Positions 3,001-49,839 of a stretch of DNA of 64,000 nt are shown here, in pieces. Within the stretch, counting starts at the first letter, position 1; every line of letters starts with the position of its first letter. Location of the stretch: IMG/VR virus record IMGVR_UViG_2851938318_000001, one strand, 5' to 3'. This stretch comes from a virus (Duplodnaviria > Heunggongvirae > Uroviricota > Caudoviricetes). Below the pieces are notes generated by a model. The model saw only the letters and a list, made by a program, of their open reading frames with translations, ran no database searches and had not been told where the DNA came from. A program made the position numbers and the translations under genes.

Positions 3001-4560
3001 CATCGCGGCCACGACCTTACCGAGATTAATTACCAGCTCTTGGTTCTTTGCTAACCATTGAGCAAGCTGACGCAACCCATCGATTGCCGTCGTTAACCCC
3101 GAACCTAAAGAATTGGCAAACGAAATCCCTTCGGCGCTATTCATGATTGAAGCCAGTTCTTTCATCCCCTTTGATAGAGAATCCAGATATCCGGCCTGAC
3201 CAACTCGATCAGCAAATAACGTGAATGACGTCTGAAGTTGCGCCAGCGCACCTGTGTAGGTTTGCATCATGTCTTTCGCTGCGTTCTCGTTCTCCGCACG
3301 CAGACCAACAAACATCAGAGACAACGCCTGTTTTGCCTCAACCGTACCGCTGGCAACAGCTTTAGTCAGTTCCCCCATAGTGATGCCTGCGGCATCTGCC
3401 ATTGCCTGCATCGCGTTAGGAACGGCTTCACCTAATTGCTGACGTAGCTCTTCCATTGACACAACGCCCTTACCGGACATCTGCTGAACGGCCACAGCCG
3501 CACGTTTCAACAGCTCACTATCACCACCAAAACGAGCAACGGAGTCCACCAGCGCCTTCAGAGAACCATCGGTTGGATCTAAGCCAGCAGAACGAAACTT
3601 CACGAAGGAATCTGTTAACGCCTGCATCGCGAACGGCGCATTTTGAGCCATGTCTACGATGTACTTCATATCATCAGCGGCAGCCTGGCCAGGGTTGGAC
3701 TTCTCCTTATTCAACCCTCGAAGCATCACCCGCATACGTTCCATTTCGGCCGCAGCTTCAACAATAGGCTTCTGCCACCCAAACATGATGTCAGTAACCG
3801 TTCTGGCTGCATCTCCGATCTCGCCAAGCAGGAAAATGTTGCCACGAAGGCCAGAGAACATACCTCCTTCGTTATTTTTACCGCTGTGACCAGAAGCGCC
3901 GCTACGCTGCCCGCTACCACCATCGCCACTTCCAGATGTACGAACGCGTACCGGCTTGCTAATCAGTTGCTGACGTCCGATAACTTCGTCCATCTGCTCA
4001 CGAACCTTTTTCAGTCCCTCGGCAGCCTGACTCGTTGTGACCCCCCAATTACTGAGTCGCTTCGTCGTGGTATTAAGGCGCGTATTCATGCCACTCACGG
4101 ACGCAGATGCTTCTTTGACCTCCGTTCCAAAGCGGCTTGCGCTTTTGCTTGCATAGGTCGCCCAATCAGAGAAATCATTTAGCTCTGATTGCACTTTACG
4201 TAATGACGCAGTGAGTTTATCTACTGAAGAAGTTGTCGTATCGACGCGCTCAATCAGGGCTTTAAGACCAGAATTGAGGCTGGTGATGTTGCCACGCATT
4301 TTACGCGTAGCATCTGAAGCAAGCTCAAAACCGGCAGCTACATCCTGTAGTTTATCTGCCGTAGAATCGAGCTTGCTTTCCAGAACGCCAATGATACGGG
4401 CGACCGAACCCAAAGAGCGTTCAAAGGTTTGGATTTTTTGAGCAGGCTTTGTTACCTGCTCACCAAATCGAGTAAGCAGTTTCCCCGCACGATCGATTGA
4501 CGCTGTAAACTGTTTGTCTTCCAGCGACAGGATAAACTCTACGTTTTGTGACATTCCCTT
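1..4560 (-). CDS. tail tape measure protein (partial, continues beyond window start)
   Basis: ATG at 4560 (MSQNVEFILSLEDKQF...); minus-strand frame open to position 1 (checked at window start); only short antisense ORFs on + strand; sits directly downstream of tail chaperone pair. Confidence 0.65.
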
Positions 4561-27577: not shown

Positions 27578-27928
27578 TTACGCGAATACCTCAAGAAACT
27601 CCTGAACGTCCCAATGCTGGACGAGGTGAAGATAGACCTTAGAAATCACGTCATTCTCGCTATCGCATGTGAAGTAGTACTTCTGGCTGCGGTTGTATGT
27701 GTCCACACAAAATTCGCTCATATCCATAAAGTCAGCATCTTCACCCAGGTCGCAAATCATCAAAGCAGGTGCGTCATCACGAGTCATCAGCTCAAGCACC
27801 CACCGCGAATTGATCAGAGTGGAAGACCAACCTTCTAACTCATAAAACTGATCAAACTCTTTTTGAGTTAATTTCTTGATTTGGTTGATGTCGATATGTG
27901 CAAACATAAAGCAATCCTTAAACAACAT
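27578..27928 (-). CDS. hypothetical early protein
   Basis: 116 aa acidic ORF directly downstream of promoter unit. Confidence 0.5.
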   Translation of the reverse strand: MLFKDCFMFAHIDINQIKKLTQKEFDQFYELEGWSSTLINSRWVLELMTRDDAPALMICDLGEDADFMDMSEFCVDTYNRSQKYYFTCDSENDVISKVYLHLVQHWDVQEFLEVFA

Positions 27929-27952
27929 GTTTTCTTGTTGGTGTTATTATCG
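27920..27952 (-). promoter_or_regulatory. conserved early promoter/operator unit
   Basis: aaacaacatgttttcttgttggtgttattatcg. Confidence 0.55.
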
Positions 27953-28279
27953 TAATAACGCACAGGCGAAAAAGGATTTTATTCCGGTGAATGTGGTTTT
28001 GGCAGTGAGTTTTCAGGTTCAGTACCGAGTACACTTTTTACATTATTCTGATTTAGTGGCCGAAGGTGGCTGGTGGACAGAATAATCCTCTCCCCGAAAA
28101 CCTACTGAAATCGATTGTGACCCGCTGACTGTCTGGCACAATTACGCTGTAGCTGGGCATTCAGAGGGAATCCAGCGGTAAGCAAGTCCGCCTGCACGTG
28201 AGCGCCTCTCTTCTTCCCGCACATTGCAGGTGGGTAGCCGCAACTCTCCCTCTCGCTATACCGGTACGCCGCCGTTCCT

Positions 28280-28410
28280 GAACCGGCATTGAGCCTTTTC
28301 CCGAAATCCACACAGGCAACTCGACCGTTTCCCTGAAAACCTCCAGCCGTTCCCAAAGGCAACCCAGCCGTTTCTGTAGCGGGATGCAGCCTTTCCCCTG
28401 TATGGACCGA
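28280..28410. repeat. degenerate iteron-like array (CCGTTTCC units), second copy
   Basis: about 6 units: cgccgttcctgaacc, agccttttcccgaaa, cgaccgtttccctgaaaa, cagccgttcccaaagg, cagccgtttctgtagc, cagcctttcccctgta. Confidence 0.55.
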
Positions 28411-28559
28411 AGGCTGACCGTAGGGGTGTTACGGGGGATAAAATCAGGAGTTGAATAAATACGAAAAAGGAGGCGACCCCCCTCCTTCCCTCCCCACTTA
28501 TACATACCTGGCTTCTTCGCTATACATGTTGTGTTTTCTTCGTGTTTTATCTGTCTCAA

Positions 28560-29280
28560 CCTCTCTATAGGCGTTAATGCTCACACCTTCCAGAACGTTC
28601 TATACGGCGACTAATTCTGTTGGTGAATTGGGTGTGTTGTTCTCTCTGTCGGTGTAAATGGTTTCGTTAGTTTTGCGGTGGTTCTTCTGTGGGATGTTCT
28701 CGTCGTTTTGGTGATTGTTCTTCTCCGTGTATGGAGTAAAGGCAGGTGGGCGATTCCTTTCGTTATTGTGTTTGAGTTGTTTGTCTGGAGTGTGTGAAGG
28801 GCTTTTGTAGTTATTCGTGTATTGGGTAATGGCGTTTCCCGTGATTGTTATGTTTCGTGTCTTTTGGGATTGAGAGAATCCTTGCGGTTACAGGCTTCGT
28901 TGGGGTTTCAGTGATTCTGGTGTTTCTTCGCTGTTTGGGTAATGGCGTGTCGTGGGTATCGCGCGTATGGAAGTTTCGAATTGCCTGTGAAAGTTAGGTT
29001 GGTTGTCCGGTAGCCTGCCATAAAGAGGTTGGTTGTTTTTGGAATGGCATATGTGTTATTTGGTTGTTTTGTTATACCTGAAAATAAGTTGTTTATATGG
29101 TTGTGTAACGCAACGGGAGCGATTTTGAGCGTGTGTTTTTGTTGGTAGTGTGTTTGGTCGTCTGTGGTGAAAATTGGACGCTGTGGCGCTGTCTGCTGCG
29201 TAGAATTACGGGTATAAGCAGTGATGTGTGAAAACGTCAATTTTTTAGACCAAATCGGGTGAAAGCGTTGATGTTTCGTT
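28560..29280. other. ORF-free region with extreme GT (plus) / CA (minus) strand skew
   Basis: about 0.7 kb almost devoid of C and A on the plus strand; only low-complexity ORFs; promoter unit at 29290-29326 points into it. Confidence 0.5.
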
Positions 29281-29289
29281 GATCTGTTA

Positions 29290-29326
29290 TTCAGTTGTTT
29301 TCTTATTGGTATAAACAACTATAACC
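29290..29326 (-). promoter_or_regulatory. conserved early promoter/operator unit (drives GT-skew region)
   Basis: ttcagttgttttcttattggtataaacaactataacc. Confidence 0.45.
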
Positions 29327-29437
29327 TATTGATATTTAAGGATGTGATTGCAGGTATAGAATGGGGGTAGTGGCGATCAACGGATTCTTATAGAAAAGAA
29401 TCAAATTGTGACCGCCATTATCAATGAGTTGCAACCG

Positions 29438-30007
29438 TTAGTTGTTCAGATAAACATTTGGAACACGGACGTAGAAGTTCCTGTCGCCGGTAAGTTCCAG
29501 AGTAATGTTAATGTCATTACCATTGTCTAGTGTAGCCGTTGCTCTATAGAACTTATCCGTCACCTTGTCCTCTATTGTCACCTTCATACATTTTGGTGCA
29601 GTCGAACCGTTATTCTCTTTCAGAATAGTTGTCACGAGAGGGCAGGCTGCTTCTTCAAGAGCAACCTCGTCCTTGTGTGGGATGCCGATGAAGATAACCC
29701 AAGCCAGCGACGCAACGATTATGATAAATGGCACTCTGCTGCCTTTTGTAATAGTCGCGCGCTTCCAGAGATAGACAGGCAGGAGGAATACCCCCCATAG
29801 AATTGAAGGTGGTTCACAGCCAGACTCCGATAGAGCCATTCTGTCAGCTACTAACAAACCGATGGTAGTTACACCCCCAATTATAATAGCGTAATTGGTA
29901 TACTCTTCCGGCGATACTCCAAAGAAGAAAGGCATGAACGCTAGAATCCACGCATAAATGTTATTCAGAGGTTTTGTTTGTTGGTTCTGGGTTTCCATCA
30001 CATCCAT
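29438..30007 (-). CDS. integral membrane protein
   Basis: 189 aa with about 4 hydrophobic helices (e.g. IYAWILAFMPFFFGV, IIIGGVTTIGLLVA). Confidence 0.5.
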   Translation of the reverse strand: MDVMETQNQQTKPLNNIYAWILAFMPFFFGVSPEEYTNYAIIIGGVTTIGLLVADRMALSESGCEPPSILWGVFLLPVYLWKRATITKGSRVPFIIIVASLAWVIFIGIPHKDEVALEEAACPLVTTILKENNGSTAPKCMKVTIEDKVTDKFYRATATLDNGNDINITLELTGDRNFYVRVPNVYLNN

Positions 30008-30160: not shown

Positions 30161-30346
30161 TTAGATGAGATGGTCTAATTCATCATCTATCATTGCTTTA
30201 ACACTTGAGTCATTAACCCCGTATTGATTTATGAACCGTTTCAGCTCCGGTGAAAACTGAAGGTAGATATCGTGAGCGTTTTTCACTGTAGGTTCAACGC
30301 CACGCATTTCAAGCGCCTTTAGTAGATATGAGTCTTCTTTAAGCAT
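30161..30346 (-). CDS. hypothetical small protein
   Basis: 61 aa ORF co-directional with neighbours. Confidence 0.3.
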   Translation of the reverse strand: MLKEDSYLLKALEMRGVEPTVKNAHDIYLQFSPELKRFINQYGVNDSSVKAMIDDELDHLI

Positions 30347-30694: not shown

Positions 30695-30765
30695 AAAACA
30701 AGTTGTTTTCTTATGTGGTTTATTATCTCCATCAACAAAAGGCAGAAAACAAATTGTTTTAGGTA
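30695..30765 (-). promoter_or_regulatory. conserved early promoter/operator unit with upstream element
   Basis: aaacaagttgttttcttatgtggtttattatc ... aaaaggcagaaaacaaattgtt. Confidence 0.55.
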
Positions 30766-30843: not shown

Positions 30844-32877
30844 TTACTTAACCTGGTGGCCAGGTTTAGCACCAGCATCCGGGCTTAACAGGAAGATATC
30901 TTTCCCGCCGGGGCCAGCAGCCATCACCATGCCTTCAGAGATACCGAAGCGCATTTTACGTGGTGCCAGGTTAGCCACCATAATGGTGTGACGACCAATC
31001 AGTGCCTGTGGATCTGGATAAGCGGAACGGATGCCTGAGAAGACATTACGCTTTTCACCACCGAGATCCAGCGTCAGGCGAAGCAGTTTGTCAGAACCTT
31101 CTACAAACTCTGCGTTTTCAATCAGCGCCACGCGCAGGTCAACTTTGGCGAAGTCGTCAAAGGTGATAGTTTCCTGAATCGGGTCGTCAGCCAGTGGGCC
31201 AGTTACCGGTGCGGCTGTGGCTTTCACTTCTTCTTTGGATGCTTCCACCAGTGCTTCAACCTGCTTCATATCGATGCGGTTATACAGTGCCTTGAACGGA
31301 TTCACTTTATGGCCCAGCAGCGGTTGCTGGATACCATCCCAGGTCAGTTCTGTATTCAGGAATGCTTCTGCACGTTCAGTCAGTTTCGGCAGTACCGGCT
31401 TCAGGTACGTCATCAGCACGCGGAACAGGTTAATGCCCATAGAGCAAATCGCCTGCAGATCGGCATCGCGTCCTTCCTGCTTCGCCACCACCCACGGAGC
31501 CTGTTCATCGACATAGCGGTTAGCCAGGTCAGCCAATGCCATGATTTCACGGATAGCTTTACCAAATTCGCGGCTTTCCCACGCTTCACCAATCACTTCA
31601 GCGGCATCAGTGAAGGTTTTGTACAACTGCGGGTCAGCCAATTCGCTTGCCAGCACGCCGTCAAAACGCTTGTTGATAAAGCCCGCATTACGAGAGGCCA
31701 GGTTAACCACTTTGTTCACGATATCGGCATTCACGCGCTGAACGAAATCCTCCAGGTTGAGATCGATATCATCAATGCGCGAAGAGAGTTTCGCAGTGTA
31801 GTAGTAACGCAGGCTGTCGGCGTCAAAATGATTCAGCCAGGTGCTGGCTTTAATAAAGGTGCCGCGAGACTTGGACATCTTCGCGCCGTTCACCGTCACA
31901 TAGCCGTGAACAAACAGGTTGGTCGGCTTGCGGAAGTTGCTGCCTTCCAGCATGGCAGGCCAGAACAGGCTGTGGAAGTAAACAATATCTTTACCGATGA
32001 AGTGGTACAGCTCGGCGGTGGAGTCTTTCTTCCAGTATTCATCGAAGCTGGAGGTGTCGCCGCGTTTGTCGCACAGATTCTTGAAGGAACCCATGTAGCC
32101 AATCGGCGCGTCCAGCCAGACGTAGAAATATTTGCCCGGTGCGTTCGGAATTTCAAAACCGAAGTACGGCGCATCGCGGGAGATATCCCACTGTTGCAGA
32201 CCAGATTCAAACCACTCCTGCATTTTGTTTGCCACCTGCTCCTGCAACGCACCGCTGCGGGTCCATGCCTGCAACATTTCGCTGAAAGAAGGCAGATCAA
32301 AGAAGAAGTGTTCGGAATCACGCATTACCGGCGTAGCACCAGAAACTACCGATTTCGGCTCGATCAGTTCAGTAGGGCTGTATGTCGCGCCGCAGACTTC
32401 ACAGTTATCGCCGTATTGATCCGGCGCTTTACATTTCGGGCATGTGCCTTTCACAAAACGGTCCGGCAGGAACATGCCTTTTTCCGGGTCGTACAGCTGA
32501 GAGATGGTGCGGTTTTTAATAAAACCGTTCTCTTTCAGGCGAGTATAGATAAGCTCGGACAACTGACGGTTCTCTTCGCTGTGCGTCGAGTGATAGTTGT
32601 CATAGCTGATGTTAAAGCCTGCAAAATCAGTCTGGTGTTCCTGACTCATTTCGCCAATCATCTGTTCCGGTGTGATACCAAGCTGCTGTGCTTTCAGCAT
32701 GATCGGTGTGCCGTGGGCATCGTCGGCACAGATGAAATTAACCTCGTGGCCGCGCATTCGCTGGTAACGAACCCAGACATCAGCCTGGATGTGCTCCAGC
32801 ATATGGCCGAGGTGGATTGAGCCGTTAGCGTACGGCAGCGCGCACGTCACCAGAATTTTCTTCGCGACTTGGGTCAT
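30844..32877 (-). CDS. metG: methionyl-tRNA synthetase (E. coli chromosomal type)
   Basis: protein from [31 protein letters not shown]... with KMSKS motif, recognised as E. coli MetRS; ORF-track start 33006 is upstream extension. Confidence 0.95.
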
Positions 32878-33034
32878 AGTAGGCATTACTTCTTTGTAGT
32901 GAAAAGGGGCTTGATAGTAACAAAATGGCCTTATGTCTGCCATGTGATAACAGCATTTCTCATAAATGATTAAATGCCGTAGCTGGAGTACACTACAAGG
33001 CGACAATTGCGCAAATTAAAATAAAGGAGACGGG

Positions 33035-34135
33035 ATGAGCGAGTCCAAATCGCCGGATGCCCTGAGAGCAATGGTAGCCGGTACGCTGGCTAATTTTCAG
33101 CACCCAACCCTGAAACACAATCTGACTACGCTTAAAGCGTTACACCATGTTGCGTTGATGGATGACACACTGCATGTCGAACTAATCATGCCTTTCGTGT
33201 GGAATAAGCCTTTTGAAGACCTGAAAGAGCAATGTAGTGGTGATCTGCTCCGTATCACTGGCGCAAAGGCTATTGACTGGAAGCTGTCGTACAACATTGC
33301 CACGCTTAAGCGCGTCAAAAACCAACCAGGCATTAATGGCGTGAAGAACATTATCGCCGTCAGCTCAGGCAAGGGCGGCGTTGGTAAATCCTCCACGGCG
33401 GTAAACCTGGCACTGGCGTTGGCTGCTGAAGGTGCGAAAGTTGGTATTTTGGATGCCGATATCTACGGGCCATCAATTCCAACCATGCTTGGCGCGGAAA
33501 ACCAACGTCCAACCTCACCGGACGGTACTCACATGGCACCGATTATGTCTCATGGACTGGCAACCAATTCAATTGGTTATCTGGTAACTGACGACAATGC
33601 GATGGTGTGGCGTGGTCCGATGGCGAGCAAGGCGTTAATGCAGATGTTGCAGGAAACTCTATGGCCTGATCTGGACTATCTCGTTCTCGATATGCCGCCG
33701 GGTACTGGTGATATTCAGCTGACGCTGGCGCAGAACATTCCTGTAACTGGTGCTGTTGTGGTAACTACGCCGCAAGATATCGCGCTGATCGATGCGAAGA
33801 AAGGCATTGTGATGTTCGAAAAAGTCGAAGTGCCGGTACTGGGTATCGTCGAAAACATGAGTGTGCATATTTGCAGTAACTGCGGTCATCACGAGCCAAT
33901 TTTTGGCACCGGTGGCGCACAGAAGCTGGCCGAGAAATACAACACGCAGTTGTTAGGCCAAATGCCACTTCATATCTCTCTTCGTGAAGATCTGGATAAC
34001 GGAACACCAACCGTTATTAGTCGTCCAGATAGCGAATTTACGGCTATTTATCGTGACCTCGCAGATCGCGTTGCTGCCCAAATGTATTGGCAAGGTGAAG
34101 TAATACCTGGCGAAATCGCATTCCGCGCAGTGTGA
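33035..34135 (+). CDS. apbC: Fe-S cluster carrier ATPase ApbC/Mrp (E. coli chromosomal type)
   Basis: P-loop AVSSGKGGVGKSS and CxxC (CSNCGH); divergent from metG as in the E. coli chromosome. Confidence 0.93.
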   Translation: MSESKSPDALRAMVAGTLANFQHPTLKHNLTTLKALHHVALMDDTLHVELIMPFVWNKPFEDLKEQCSGDLLRITGAKAIDWKLSYNIATLKRVKNQPGINGVKNIIAVSSGKGGVGKSSTAVNLALALAAEGAKVGILDADIYGPSIPTMLGAENQRPTSPDGTHMAPIMSHGLATNSIGYLVTDDNAMVWRGPMASKALMQMLQETLWPDLDYLVLDMPPGTGDIQLTLAQNIPVTGAVVVTTPQDIALIDAKKGIVMFEKVEVPVLGIVENMSVHICSNCGHHEPIFGTGGAQKLAEKYNTQLLGQMPLHISLREDLDNGTPTVISRPDSEFTAIYRDLADRVAAQMYWQGEVIPGEIAFRAV

Positions 34136-48625: not shown

Positions 48626-49516
48626 TCAGGCTGCCAGATCATCGTTTCCGATGGAAGCATAATAAGCTTTTTCTGCTTCTGCCGGAGGAGTATGGCCCAG
48701 CCTTCCCAGCAATCGTCGATTGTTATACCAGTCCACCCACGTTAGTGTGGCCAGTTCCACTTCTGCACGGTTTTTCCAGCTCTTACGGTGTATTACCTCC
48801 GCTTTGTAAAGACCATTGATGCTCTCAGCCATCGCGTTGTCATACGAGTCGCCTGTACTCCCTGTTGATGCCAGTAATCCGGCTTCTTTTAGTCGCTCCG
48901 TATAGGCCAGTGACACATACTGAGAGCCTTTATCGCTGTGATGGATGGTGCCAGACGGACGACGGGCCCACAACGCCTGCTCCAGCGCATCCAGCACGAA
49001 TGTCGTTTCCATAGACGATGAGACCCGCCACCCCACGATGTATCCGGCAAACACATCAATGATAAACGCCACATAGACGAAGCCCTGCCATGTGCTGACG
49101 TAAGTAAAATCAGCCACCCACAGCTGGTCAGGTCGTTCTGCCACGAACTGACGGTTTACGCGGTCGCCTGCGGCAACGGCTTTCCGGCTGATGGTCGTAC
49201 GGACCTTTTTACCCCGGAGAACACCGGCAAGTCCCATAACCGCCATGAGACGTGCCACTGTACATCTGGCCACCCTGATTCCTTCCCGTAACAACTGACG
49301 CCAGACTTTACGCACACCGTACACCTGATGATTTTCATCGTATACGCGCTGTATCTCTCTCTTCAGCCAGTCGTCGTGCTGCGCACGGGCACTGCGTTTA
49401 TCCGGATGATGTCGCTGTTGCTGACAATGGTAATACGTTGACGGGGCAATATGCAGTTCGCTGCATACCGGTCCGACCCCGTACTGCTCACGCAGCTTAT
49501 CCAGCAGTGGCATCAT
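48626..49516 (-). CDS. IS629-type transposase OrfB (DDE)
   Basis: overlaps orfA in -1 frame; DDE integrase-like sequence. Confidence 0.85.
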
Positions 49517-49839
49517 TTTTTCCAGAGGCGGTCGAACTCCGCCTTCGCAAAATAAGCGGAAGCCTGGCGAAGGATATCGTTACTGCGGCGCAGTTCACGA
49601 TTTTCACGTTCCAGCTCTTTCAGACGCTGACGTTCAGCGCTGGTGAGCCCACCATCACCGCCCCCGGTATCCCGCTCATGCTGGCGAACCCAGACACGCA
49701 GAGTCTCCGGCGTACAGCCAATCTTTGGGGCAATGGAACAAATTGCCGCCCACTGTGAGTCATATTCATCCTGACTTTCCAGAACCATACGAATCGCCCG
49801 CTGACGGACTTCGGGGGAAAAACGAGTATTTTTAGTCAT
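49513..49839 (-). CDS. IS629-type transposase OrfA
   Basis: [31 protein letters not shown]... recognised as IS629/IS3411 OrfA. Confidence 0.9.

Follow-up and report, generated by a model that had tools for sequence, protein, structure and literature searches.

What function, if any, resides in a gene-free stretch of phage DNA whose two strands differ sharply in base composition? The locus considered here lies in an SSU5-family phage-plasmid of E. coli, of which a stretch of 64,000 nucleotides (hereafter the window) was analyzed. Over positions 28615–29314 the G+T content of the plus strand is 0.72, which is 7.6 SD above the mean of the 64-kb window (0.497, SD 0.029); the second-largest G+T deviation in these 64 kb is 0.559, and the region leads by a wide margin. 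In 200-nt windows across 28600–29300, GC skew ranges from +0.41 to +0.48 and AT skew from −0.29 to −0.55, and the edges of the element are sharp. No second island of comparable skew is found in a further 43 kb of the plasmid (approximately 107 kb scanned in all). These compositional windows bear out the position and extent of the extreme GT/CA strand skew reported in the initial annotation of this DNA. Its description of the plus strand as “almost exclusively G and T” was overstated, with minus-strand base contents of A 0.40, C 0.30, G 0.14, and T 0.15. There is no exact Chi octamer (GCTGGTGG) within 28560–29330 and one site with a single mismatch, and a Chi cluster (RecBCD-related GT-rich DNA) was rejected on this ground.

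Protein coding does not explain the skew. In the lineage alignment no start codon is conserved in any frame, and the positions and strands of open reading frames vary between lineages. The best minus-strand frame is open for 83–96 codons and is ended in most lineages by the same TAG (near 28603). A C/A-rich strand has few stop codons by composition alone. No ATG, GTG, or TTG opens this frame in the window or in SSU5, a Shine-Dalgarno sequence is lacking, and frameshifts break the frame in Enterobacter ludwigii and Kp151. By codon phase, the element has substitution values of 0.67/0.48/0.66 compared to 0.57/0.44/1.31 in the neighboring real gene, and the period-3 z-score is 1.3 compared to 3.9–13 for genes. 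No matches to Pfam or PHROG were obtained for the region, and a search of 5.8 billion proteins returned 7 tiny clusters, each of them an ORF call on the same DNA element. In all lineages the PGAP annotation is blank over this region. The element is non-coding, and the earlier statement that it holds “no credible ORF” is borne out by four independent tests; likewise, the claim that normal coding does not account for the skew agrees with the start-codon, codon-phase, period-3, and protein-family results. A frameshift-corrected ORF with database homologues, which the same annotation had named as evidence against its view, did not emerge: there are no family homologues, and the 7 clusters derive from the element itself.

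It is exceedingly unlikely, then, that the minus strand of the locus codes for an unusual hydrophilic protein of low complexity, or its plus strand for small hydrophobic peptides. Such a protein would be consistent with the TAG shared by most lineages, with a local period-3 patch at 28800–28550 (z 2.6–3.8) in which indels are mostly multiples of 3, and with the ORFs called by the annotators of Cyrano, PhiR41_1, and SSU5. However, these annotated ORFs disagree in strand, a start codon and a third-position substitution excess are both lacking, frameshifts occur, and there are only 7 sporadic clusters, without family matches, although more than 800 plasmids have the DNA.

A search for homologous regions in other phages, which the initial annotation had proposed, places a related element at the same syntenic position in over 800 plasmids and phages of enterobacteria (825 plasmid records), with the skew retained at 66–75% sequence identity. 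Among viral contigs that share the inverted repeat upstream of the element (see below), approximately 60 of 66 have an A+C content of 0.65–0.72, and the exceptions are mostly truncated fragments. In 64 of 69 syntenic loci, the neighbor gene is preceded by an island whose A+C reaches 0.66 or more; the other five are IS-mediated or half-size deletion derivatives. These five contigs were considered as natural knock-outs and set aside, being IS/deletion remnants and no intact phages. All full-size family members examined have the element. An apparently independent occurrence in large Klebsiella IncFIB/IncHI1B plasmids is really an IS-flanked phage-plasmid fragment, and a seemingly divergent Klebsiella lineage (10%-coverage matches) is the same Klebsiella type, its low coverage having come from the joining of BLAST pieces. 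A scan of a genome collection added Buttiauxella and a few contigs of non-enterobacterial assemblies, which are either chance pattern matches or probable contamination. Full-text literature searches found no description of the element, and as far as these searches show it is undescribed.

Identity between lineages is 0.58–0.71 in the body of the element and only 0.37–0.44 at third codon positions of the same lineages. This means that the body evolves much more slowly than synonymous sites, in six or more genera, and that it is under purifying selection at the sequence level, beyond what composition explains. The substitution spectrum, taken as a sign of selection on composition, was not decisive. 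The element is therefore constrained as well as non-coding, as had been proposed, with sequence and skew both kept across lineages. That it should be a functionless relic, whether decayed from duplicated promoter/leader units or a dead gene or left by mutational bias, is highly unlikely. Parts of the body do resemble degenerate early promoter/leader units, themselves C/A-rich, the window version has fewer repeat copies than SSU5, and deletion derivatives exist; but decay is difficult to reconcile with conservation far above that of synonymous sites, with sharp boundaries, with lineage-specific insertions that keep the skew, and with the presence of the element in every full-size member examined. 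Transcription-coupled deamination on a leftward unit also gives the opposite skew.

The body and its repeated motifs are as follows.

28560–29204, minus strand: C/A-rich, G/U-poor body, non-coding and constrained, whose minus-strand RNA is predicted to be nearly structure-free
29080–29096, minus strand: copy of the operator palindrome of the early units, AAACAAgTTGTTTT in most lineages and AAACAACTTATTTT in the window
29041–29048, 28939–28946, 28826–28833, and 28736–28743, minus strand: GCCATTAC-type repeats, all in the same orientation
29023–29031, minus strand: repeat CAACCTCTT
29008–29017, minus strand: repeat CAGGCTACCG
28717–28726, 28681–28690, and 28636–28645, minus strand: GGAGAAGAAC-type repeats

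The minus-strand RNA of the body has a predicted folding energy of −0.141 kcal/mol per nt, compared to −0.286 ± 0.032 in 178 background segments, whose range does not include it (z +4.6); folding of the plus strand is ordinary. The same minus-strand-only lack of structure is repeated in four other lineages. Being rich in C and A and poor in G and U, such an RNA would be unable to fold. Consensus folding of the alignment revealed no conserved RNA structure within the body, and a conserved structure was ruled out; when the full length is folded, the pairing partners of the G-rich 3′ tract are inconsistent. The region contains no tRNA, and the Rfam 15 covariance models gave nothing at gathering score and, up to E = 5, one chance-level match outside the body.

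The repeat ttgggtaatggcgt, which had been noted as occurring twice, is indeed present in two copies, with the minus-strand core GCCATTAC at 28826–28833 and 28939–28946, and two degenerate copies accompany them. Repeat copies are more numerous in SSU5 (6, 3, 5, and 2) than in the window. Lineages differ by whole-unit indels of the repeats, for example of a 31-nt unit, and the repeats are better conserved than the sequence between them. Their spacing is irregular (41–193 nt), and the regular helix-phased spacing of iteron- or centromere-type arrays is not seen among the body motifs. The operator palindrome copy is followed by AgAAAACAA at 29064–29072.

On either side of the body lie elements that may set the limits of a transcription unit.

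29371–29417, minus strand: invariant inverted repeat with 9-bp arms (29409–29417 and 29371–29379) and an inner 7-bp hairpin (29383–29402)
29420–29426, 29376–29382, 29277–29283, 29266–29272, and 29235–29241: five CGTTGAY boxes in mixed orientation (three against two)
29295–29319, minus strand: degenerate early promoter/leader unit, with AAGAAAACAA kept and the GATAAT −10 and TTGTTT palindrome half lost
29211–29240, minus strand: candidate sigma-70 promoter, with an A-tract, −35 TTGACG (29240–29235), an 18-nt spacer, and −10 TATACC (29216–29211)
28463–28488, minus strand: terminator-like 3′ hairpin, listed in the terminator scan of the window
28250–28400, no strand assigned: iteron-like array of approximately 6 copies of cAGGGAAAcGGCTg (minus strand) at 19–32 bp spacing, mostly approximately 22 bp
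27927–27951, minus strand: next intact early promoter/leader unit, which drives the gene at 27578–27928 and forms the 3′ boundary of the gene-free module

The inverted repeat lies just past the stop codon of the variable cargo gene upstream and forms the 5′ boundary of the conserved module. All 9 of its pairs are invariant or nearly so (consensus energy −11), and expression in LF82 drops from 587 to 2 fpkm across it. It is likely the terminator of the upstream cargo gene. Early promoter/leader units of the form GATAAT-N9-AAGAAAACAAC-TTGTTT, with operators of the form AAAACAAC-TTGTTTT, precede six genes in the window; those that are intact, at 30727, 27951, 26513, 25797, 25312, and 43109, each lie 20–35 nt before a start codon. 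The “promoter unit at 29290-29326” of the initial annotation is a copy of this repeated early unit, but it is without the GATAAT −10 and the second palindrome half, and, unlike the intact units, it is not placed before a start codon.

A different candidate for the start of transcription is the sigma-70 promoter at 29240–29211, with a predicted start near 29204. Its −35 hexamer and flank (AAgTTGACGTTTt) are invariant in 13 non-redundant lineages, CTTATAc is conserved, and the spacing is fixed. By the usual sigma-70 criteria (−35 and −10 at 16–18 nt spacing; −10 with A at position 2 and T at position 6), the −10 TATACC is without the near-universal final T, and the site is absent from the list produced by a consensus promoter scan. 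The CGTTGAY blocks are the most conserved parts of the module in the alignments, and they are putative operator sites around the promoter.

At the other end, 10 pairs of the 3′ hairpin (28488–28463) are kept across 9 lineages, mainly via G-C to G.U exchanges. Such exchanges work only in the minus-strand RNA, and the conservation of the hairpin thus points to RNA. An intrinsic terminator consists of a G+C-rich hairpin followed by a U-run; the U-run is present in the E. coli lineage and poor in the Salmonella and Klebsiella lineages. The iteron-like array is found in all lineages, with GGGAAAaGGCT invariant and with regular helix-phase spacing. As judged from sequence, it may be functionally coupled to the element.

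Published RNA-seq of LF82/Cyrano lysogens in five conditions gives 0–14 fpkm for the region, in data that are shallow. For CYRAN_103 the LB value is 0 fpkm, and it is 2 fpkm against 587 for the upstream gene and approximately 50 for the downstream one. The element is silent between active flanks in Cyrano lysogens, and any RNA made from it must therefore be specific to lytic growth. The earlier suggestion of a long non-coding RNA, to be sought by RNA-seq as a CA-rich transcript, is thus answered in part: a minus-strand CA transcript is plausible from the promoter pair, the hairpin, and the strand-specific unfoldedness, but none is seen in these lysogen data.

On this evidence, the 0.7-kb region is probably a lytic-phase regulatory RNA region and possibly a Rho loading zone. 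It would be a transcription unit that is conserved but non-coding, and that runs along the minus strand, co-directional with all flanking genes. Its heavily guarded promoter would be shut in the lysogen and would fire presumably on induction or infection, to give an RNA of approximately 750 nt, of which approximately 650 nt would be C/A-rich and unfoldable, and which would end at the 28488–28463 hairpin. Function would rest on a long, naked, untranslated single strand with dispersed conserved repeats. The most likely partner, although a speculative one, would be the host termination factor Rho; the body resembles a Rut site repeated eight to ten times.

Rut sites feature a C>G bias and low structure, with A/C preferred at the Rho primary site and an optimum of 60–90 nt (PMC12360218), and in E. 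coli the inhibitory RNA-polymerase-binding aptamers (iRAPs), which provoke termination by Rho, are marked by CA-rich motifs (PMC6847712). The body combines a C>G bias and A/C richness with limited structure and a lack of translation, as a candidate Rut region should. Per 78 nt, its median C/G ratio is 2.5, and for C minus G, 83% of body windows exceed the 95th percentile of the 64-kb window. YC dinucleotides are not enriched over composition. We tentatively favor a repressed lytic-phase non-coding unit whose single-stranded transcript would act via Rho as a poly-Rut attenuator or sink, a reading that is plausible though short of probable. In cis, it would attenuate, through Rho, the transcription that enters the iteron array and the downstream early genes; in trans, the transcript would be a Rho sink. 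It is quite unlikely that a poly-Rut RNA of approximately 750 nt soaks up Rho, or another ssRNA-binding host protein, from the start of lytic growth and so relieves the many short early units of the phage from Rho-dependent silencing. To our knowledge, Rho disarmed in trans by the RNA of a mobile element would be a first, the known agents being proteins such as Psu and Rof.

Several points weigh against a role for Rho. The (shallow) lysogen RNA-seq is without a transcript, the promoter has the imperfect −10 and scan result described above, and a proper U-tract follows the 3′ hairpin in the E. coli lineage only. Rut function needs only composition and 60–90 nt, and so leaves 650 nt of specific sequence and repeats unexplained. 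An untranslated poly-Rut RNA should be shortened by Rho, which makes a full-length product and an intrinsic terminator look redundant. Finally, the upstream inverted repeat seems to stop read-through already, so the need for an insulator is not obvious.

Other functions of the same unit have to be weighed against the Rho reading. The conserved motifs GCCAUUAC, CCACCUCUU, GGAGAAGAAC, and CAGGCUACCG could bind an ssRNA-binding protein other than Rho or pair with G/U-rich RNA, so that a trans-acting sponge or scaffold RNA would sequester a factor in lytic growth. Dispersed repeats in the same orientation and an unstructured context are the layout of known sponges, the repeats are more conserved than the spacers and vary in copy number by whole units, and the purifying selection on sequence would be accounted for, as would a candidate promoter and 3′ hairpin of the unit's own. 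This is possible, though on the unlikely side, since the familiar partners do not fit. Motifs for Hfq ((ARN)n and AAYAAYAA) and CsrA (GGA) occur at composition level in four lineages (z −1.4 to +1.9), the MazF motif (ACA) is likewise not enriched over composition, and arrays of CsrA, Hfq, or MazF motifs were dropped for this reason. These counts also bear on the protein-binding decoy suggested in the initial annotation, for which none of these known motifs exceeds composition. A GcvB sponge or target was dropped as well: pairing with GcvB R1 is no better than in shuffles and worse in three lineages, and the best sites are not conserved. The neighboring proteins are all without assigned function, and again the lysogen RNA-seq holds no transcript.

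Another reading is that the element belongs to a lytic replication origin and is the part activated by transcription. An unfoldable transcript would run from the repressed promoter toward the iteron-like array at 28250–28400; the RNA would form an R-loop on the G/T-rich template, be processed by the RNase HI that the plasmid itself encodes, and serve in priming DNA synthesis, and the displaced C/A-rich strand would be a structure-free helicase loading zone. Untranslated, unstructured RNA is prone to R-loops, and P1 oriL and T4 oriF/oriG are precedents for phage origins activated by a regulated promoter. In every lineage approximately 6 repeats at approximately 22-bp spacing directly follow the 3′ hairpin, and the element stays silent while the phage-plasmid is maintained as a plasmid. 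The genes of the matching plasmid include rnhA and those for a Pol III alpha subunit, a DnaB-like helicase, a primase, and a ligase. Even so, an origin is unlikely. The skew is of the amino/keto type rather than the purine skew that stabilizes hybrids, a hairpin stands between body and iterons, and no identified initiator gene could be tied to the iteron motif. Cumulative GC skew has no turning point at the element, and a replication switch there was dropped. A function in double-stranded DNA, either as an array of protein sites (a decoy or titration device for the regulator of the early units) or as a recombination anchor beside the variable cargo slot, is decidedly improbable. It would fit the degenerate early promoter/leader units and the one operator-type palindrome in the body, repeats that all point in the same direction, silence in lysogens, and the mosaic pTB212, whose crossover lies inside the body near 29030. 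Yet binding to duplex DNA needs neither strand-asymmetric spacers nor an unfoldable strand, spacing is irregular with only one full palindrome and no Chi, and the G.U exchanges in the hairpin point to RNA.

Several known systems resemble the element in part. Rut regions of Rho-dependent terminators and attenuators (lambda tR1 rutA/rutB; long leaders sensitive to Rho, as in rho, corA, and mgtA) are likewise untranslated, A/C-rich with C>G, low in structure, and directional, and they lie between a promoter and downstream genes in the early phage region. The element, for which a Rut role is a candidate function, differs in being approximately 10 times the optimal Rut length and in having a conserved specific sequence with repeats, a guarded promoter, and an end hairpin. 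The iRAPs of E. coli also act in CA-rich nascent RNA, approximately 28.5% of them share a CA-rich motif, and iRAPs cause Rho-dependent termination in cis (PMC6847712); they are, however, short aptamers selected for RNA polymerase binding, and the likeness is one of CA-richness as described. The sponges CsrB/CsrC, RsmY/Z, and CrcZ are non-coding, carry many copies of a short motif, and have their own promoter and terminator, as the element would with its candidate promoter; CrcZ has A-rich “CA motifs” in single-stranded stretches. These sponges are 100–400 nt, partly structured, and abundant, whereas the element is approximately 750 nt, unstructured, and silent in lysogens, and their GGA and ARN/AAYAAYAA motifs are not enriched in it. 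C/A-richness is also shared with GcvB targets and SroC, and any such RNA pairs with GcvB R1 at −22 to −29 kcal/mol; pairing of the element is at the level of composition-matched shuffles, without conservation of the best sites. As in P1 oriL, T4 oriF/oriG, and ColE1 RNA II, a regulated promoter (here a candidate) points toward an origin-like array and an RNase H gene is aboard, but the RNA of the element has no purine or G skew, and the likeness to an origin is one of sequence features.

SSU5-type phage-plasmids occur commonly in clinical E. coli, Klebsiella, Enterobacter, and Salmonella, bring resistance genes with them, and have a lysis-lysogeny control that is almost unstudied. The element described here is among the best-conserved non-coding features of these phage-plasmids, with one strand directionally unfoldable. 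In practical terms, spurious “hypothetical proteins” are currently annotated on both of its strands. Should the element prove to be a sponge or to belong to a lytic origin, it would be a new regulatory RNA or the so-far unmapped origin of the family. If the Rho role is true, it would show a plasmid-prophage using or evading the chief factor by which the host silences foreign DNA, and would supply a long natural Rut array for studies of mechanism.

The strong GT/CA strand skew reported in the initial annotation is borne out. On the plus strand between 28600 and 29300, GC skew is +0.41 to +0.48 and AT skew is -0.29 to -0.55. G+T reaches 0.72 over 28615-29314 compared to 0.497 ± 0.029 for all 700-nt windows, the second-largest deviation in the window being 0.559, and a further 43 kb of plasmid contains no second island (G+T stays at 0.41-0.56). 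The skewed island is therefore real, sharp-edged, and unique. The wording "almost exclusively G and T" was overstated, as the remaining two bases make up 28%, while the internal repeat quoted with it does occur in two copies, together with two degenerate ones.

No credible ORF had been seen here, and ORF, substitution, period-3, and family tests agree. PGAP leaves a gene-free gap of 1.4-1.9 kb at the syntenic position in every lineage fetched, and GenBank ORF calls lie on opposite strands in two related phages (minus in Cyrano, plus in SSU5). A C/A-rich strand poor in T and G offers few stop codons, so long open stretches are expected on it; where they lie varies between lineages. One frame stays open for 83-96 codons up to a shared TAG, but neither the window nor SSU5 offers it an ATG, GTG, or TTG start, and it carries a frameshift in two lineages. 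Across six lineages, substitutions per site by codon phase are 0.67/0.48/0.66 in the C/A-rich body of the element, compared to 0.57/0.44/1.31 in a neighbouring 312-nt control gene. Period-3 power does not rise above background (z 1.3 versus 3.9-13 for four genes), except in a weak local patch at 28800-28550. The element has no match in Pfam or PHROGs, and its best frame, searched against 5.8 billion proteins, finds seven clusters of 1-10 members, all ORF calls on the element's own DNA, although more than 800 plasmids carry that DNA. A coding reading is thus contradicted by the start-codon, codon-phase, period-3, family, and protein-search tests.

E. coli plasmid pRM9131-1 (NZ_CP028430.1, 117 kb) matches the 901 bases around the element at 100% identity, and phages Cyrano, PhiR41_1, and CMS-2020a match them at 92-96%; all four are SSU5-type phage-plasmids. 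Homologous stretches of 66-76% identity are found in Salmonella phage SSU5 and in Klebsiella, Enterobacter, Citrobacter, Cronobacter, Salmonella, and Shigella plasmids, and a scan of species-representative genomes adds Buttiauxella as a carrier. The element is present in 825 plasmid records, of which 799 are non-mobilizable, mostly of about 105-115 kb.

Sequence comparison indicates that the element is under selection. Among the window, SSU5, and Klebsiella lineages, 0.58-0.71 of body positions are identical, compared to 0.37-0.44 of third codon positions in flanking genes. Of 66 viral contigs with the same inverted repeat upstream, about 60 have an A+C of 0.65-0.72; the rest are chiefly truncated pieces, along with a probable chance match (L075) and a divergent contig (L033, 0.62). 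Segments found in some lineages only are C/A-rich too. An island with A+C >= 0.66 lies upstream of the conserved neighbour gene at 64 of 69 loci, and the five loci that lack it are derivatives (a deletion mediated by ISSen4, a half-size Cronobacter remnant of 51 kb, and similar cases). This conservation contradicts the reading of the element as a relic.

Some copies occur in other settings. A fragment of the Klebsiella-type element lies at 3620-4361 of a 261-kb K. pneumoniae IncFIB/IncHI1B plasmid (L004, NZ_CP055163.1), truncated on one side beside an IS3-family transposase end and adjoining IS5 on the other. Such a fragment is common to several 214-262-kb Klebsiella plasmids, large non-phage plasmids that have captured it. 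The promoter block and C/A-rich body also appear on contigs assigned to non-enterobacterial genomes (L019 and L020, labelled as a Bacillota MAG and Catenulispora), most likely because an enterobacterial phage-plasmid contaminated these assemblies or was mis-binned. E. coli plasmid pTB212 (L006, NZ_CP033252.1) is a mosaic that switches at window-equivalent positions ~29030 and ~28150: it follows the E. coli type as far as the CCACCTCTT motif (88-97% to the window), is SSU5-type (90-100%) for the next ~900 nt, and returns to the E. coli type after that, so that one crossover falls within the C/A-rich body.

The element is laid out on the minus strand, the direction of every flanking gene, as follows (5′ to 3′).

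29417-29371, minus: invariant inverted repeat, directly after the stop codon of a lineage-variable gene
29319-29295, minus: degenerate copy of the early promoter/leader unit, without -10 hexamer
Around the invariant AAAAAgTTGACGTTTT: five CGTTGAY boxes, a conserved block near the candidate promoter
29240-29235 (-35) and 29216-29211 (-10, TATACC), minus: candidate promoter, with an 18-nt spacer and the -10 coming after AAAAAgTTGACGTTTT
~650 nt, minus: C/A-rich body with same-orientation repeats GCCATTAC, CCACCTCTT, CAGGCTACCG, and GGAGAAGAAC
29096-29080: one copy of the early-unit palindrome (putative operator), inside the body
28488-28463, minus: G-rich tract and hairpin, ten pairs kept in nine lineages
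28400-28250: iteron-like array of about six cAGGGAAAcGGCTg copies (minus strand; GGGAAAcGGCT), spaced 19-32 bp, mostly ~22 bp
27951-27927, minus: next intact early unit

The promoter unit initially annotated at 29290-29326 is indeed a copy of the early unit, albeit a degenerate one whose -10 hexamer is gone. Intact units, (TTTTCTGCCTTAT)-N-GATAAT-N9-AAGAAAACAAC-TTGTTT, lie on the minus strand at 30727-30703, 27951-27927, 26513-26489, 25797-25773, 25312-25288, and 43109-43085, each 20-35 nt upstream of a small gene's start codon. The AAAACAAC/TTGTTTT palindrome looks like an operator common to these units, and AAGAAAACAA (<=1 mismatch) occurs 24 times versus 9.4 ± 2.9 expected. The gene upstream of the inverted repeat (29438-30007 in the window) differs in every lineage and encodes 61-408 aa, with no Pfam or PADLOC matches except DUF5983 in two. 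Its transcription invariably runs toward the repeat, and the arrangement resembles a cargo slot closed by a fixed terminator. In the body, GCCATTAC, CCACCTCTT, CAGGCTACCG, and GGAGAAGAAC number 4, 1, 1, and 3 in the window and 6, 3, 2, and 5 in SSU5, and whole-unit indels distinguish the lineages. The iteron-like array, directly downstream of the 3′ hairpin, is conserved in all lineages and could be a lytic origin, copy-control locus, or centromere. GC skew changes sign at the array, where the minus strand is G-rich; the Cyrano annotation places a "hypothetical protein", CYRAN_104, over it.

As minus-strand RNA, the body folds at -0.141 kcal/mol per nt, compared to -0.286 ± 0.032 (range -0.381 to -0.219) for 178 background segments of the window, while as plus-strand RNA it is ordinary (-0.247). 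The asymmetry is repeated in SSU5, Citrobacter, Salmonella AnCo3, and Klebsiella, and no part of the body shows conserved structure by sliding RNAalifold. Because A and C cannot pair mutually, the skew keeps one strand single-stranded. Pairs of the 3′ hairpin are maintained mainly via G-C to G.U exchanges, which would leave A.C mismatches on the opposite strand. Because only one strand is unfoldable, the hairpin is of the G.U type, and the -35 is conserved, our working model assigns the function to a transcript of the minus strand and not to duplex DNA.

The sole relevant expression data set found is RNA-seq of LF82, an E. coli lysogen of Cyrano, re-analysed on the Cyrano genome (PMC9928086, S1 Table; values as log2(5+fpkm)), with shallow coverage and counting that is possibly not strand-specific. 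CYRAN_103, equivalent to ~29318-28996 (the candidate promoter plus the initial 210 nt of the body), shows 0 fpkm in the two LB replicates and no more than ~14 fpkm in the others. For comparison, these samples give up to 587 fpkm for the upstream cargo gene CYRAN_102 and about 50-220 fpkm for CYRAN_105, the first gene downstream (PMC9928086). Signal falls ~270-fold across the inverted repeat, and no transcript of the element is seen in these shallow lysogen data. From this pattern, the unit is silent in the plasmid state, transcription from upstream ends at or before the inverted repeat, and RNA from the unit, if any, must come from lytic growth. The LF82 upstream gene is a lysogeny-expressed moron.

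We tentatively favour, at less than even confidence, a poly-Rut transcript, serving either as a cis attenuator or as a trans Rho sink. The Rho primary site favours A and C at most positions of bound RNA, and Rut sites are C>G, low-structure regions, optimally of 60-90 nt (PMC12360218, a 2025 review); CA-rich motifs also mark RNA-polymerase aptamers that trigger Rho termination (PMC6847712). All sequence-level Rut properties are found in the body, which is C>G biased, little structured, untranslated, and A/C-rich. Its median C/G ratio per 78 nt is 2.5, and its C>G bias exceeds the 95th percentile of the whole window in 83% of windows. It is these properties and the aptamer parallel that favour the reading. 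In cis, the attenuator would gate entry into the iteron array and early genes; in trans, the transcript would act as a sink for Rho. However, Rut function leaves the sequence-level conservation and repeats unexplained, the -10 hexamer is imperfect, Rho would be expected to truncate its own substrate, and LF82 lysogen RNA-seq does not show the transcript.

The repeat architecture would fit a sponge for a factor other than Rho, although no known motif is enriched, and this is unlikely. Somewhat less probable is a part in a promoter-activated lytic origin: iterons adjoin the element and the plasmid carries an RNase HI gene, but cumulative GC skew has no turning point here. The pTB212 crossover is what a duplex DNA array or recombination anchor would have in its favour; such a role leaves the one-strand property unexplained and is improbable.

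Several other features were observed. Chi or Chi-like octamers (GCTGGTGG, <=1 mismatch) number 84 in the whole window versus 39 ± 6 in shuffles; the 15 exact sites, a density resembling the E. coli chromosome, include none in the skewed region. A 61-aa protein (30161-30346, minus; phrog_11467) matches the Pfam family of the T7 gp5.9 RecBCD inhibitor, though below threshold (E 0.006, 16.9 bits; cut-off 24.5), a hint of an early host-takeover or anti-defence cluster in this neighbourhood. Close to the element are a full methionyl-tRNA synthetase gene (about 30844-32877, minus) and a MinD/Mrp(ApbC)-like ATPase gene (about 33000-34100, plus), the latter lysogeny-expressed in LF82. Elsewhere, NZ_CP028430.1 carries rnhA, nrdB, thyA, and genes for the Pol III alpha subunit and DHFR. 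A full-length Rfam match at 49442-49558 (minus) to the ALIL pseudoknot (RF01497, 121.5 bits), an IS3-family transposase frameshift signal, means that an IS element has inserted in that part of the phage-plasmid.

No Rfam family matches the element, even at E = 5, and full-text literature searches found no description of it. In working mode, its nearest counterparts are the Rut region, whose testable properties it shares, and sponge RNA, although it lacks the motifs expected of CsrB-, CrcZ-, and SroC-type sponges. It is a very long, sequence-conserved, unstructured C/A-rich element equipped with a candidate promoter. The element is real, physically extreme, and widespread in clinically important plasmids, where it would have the function that we infer from its sequence.
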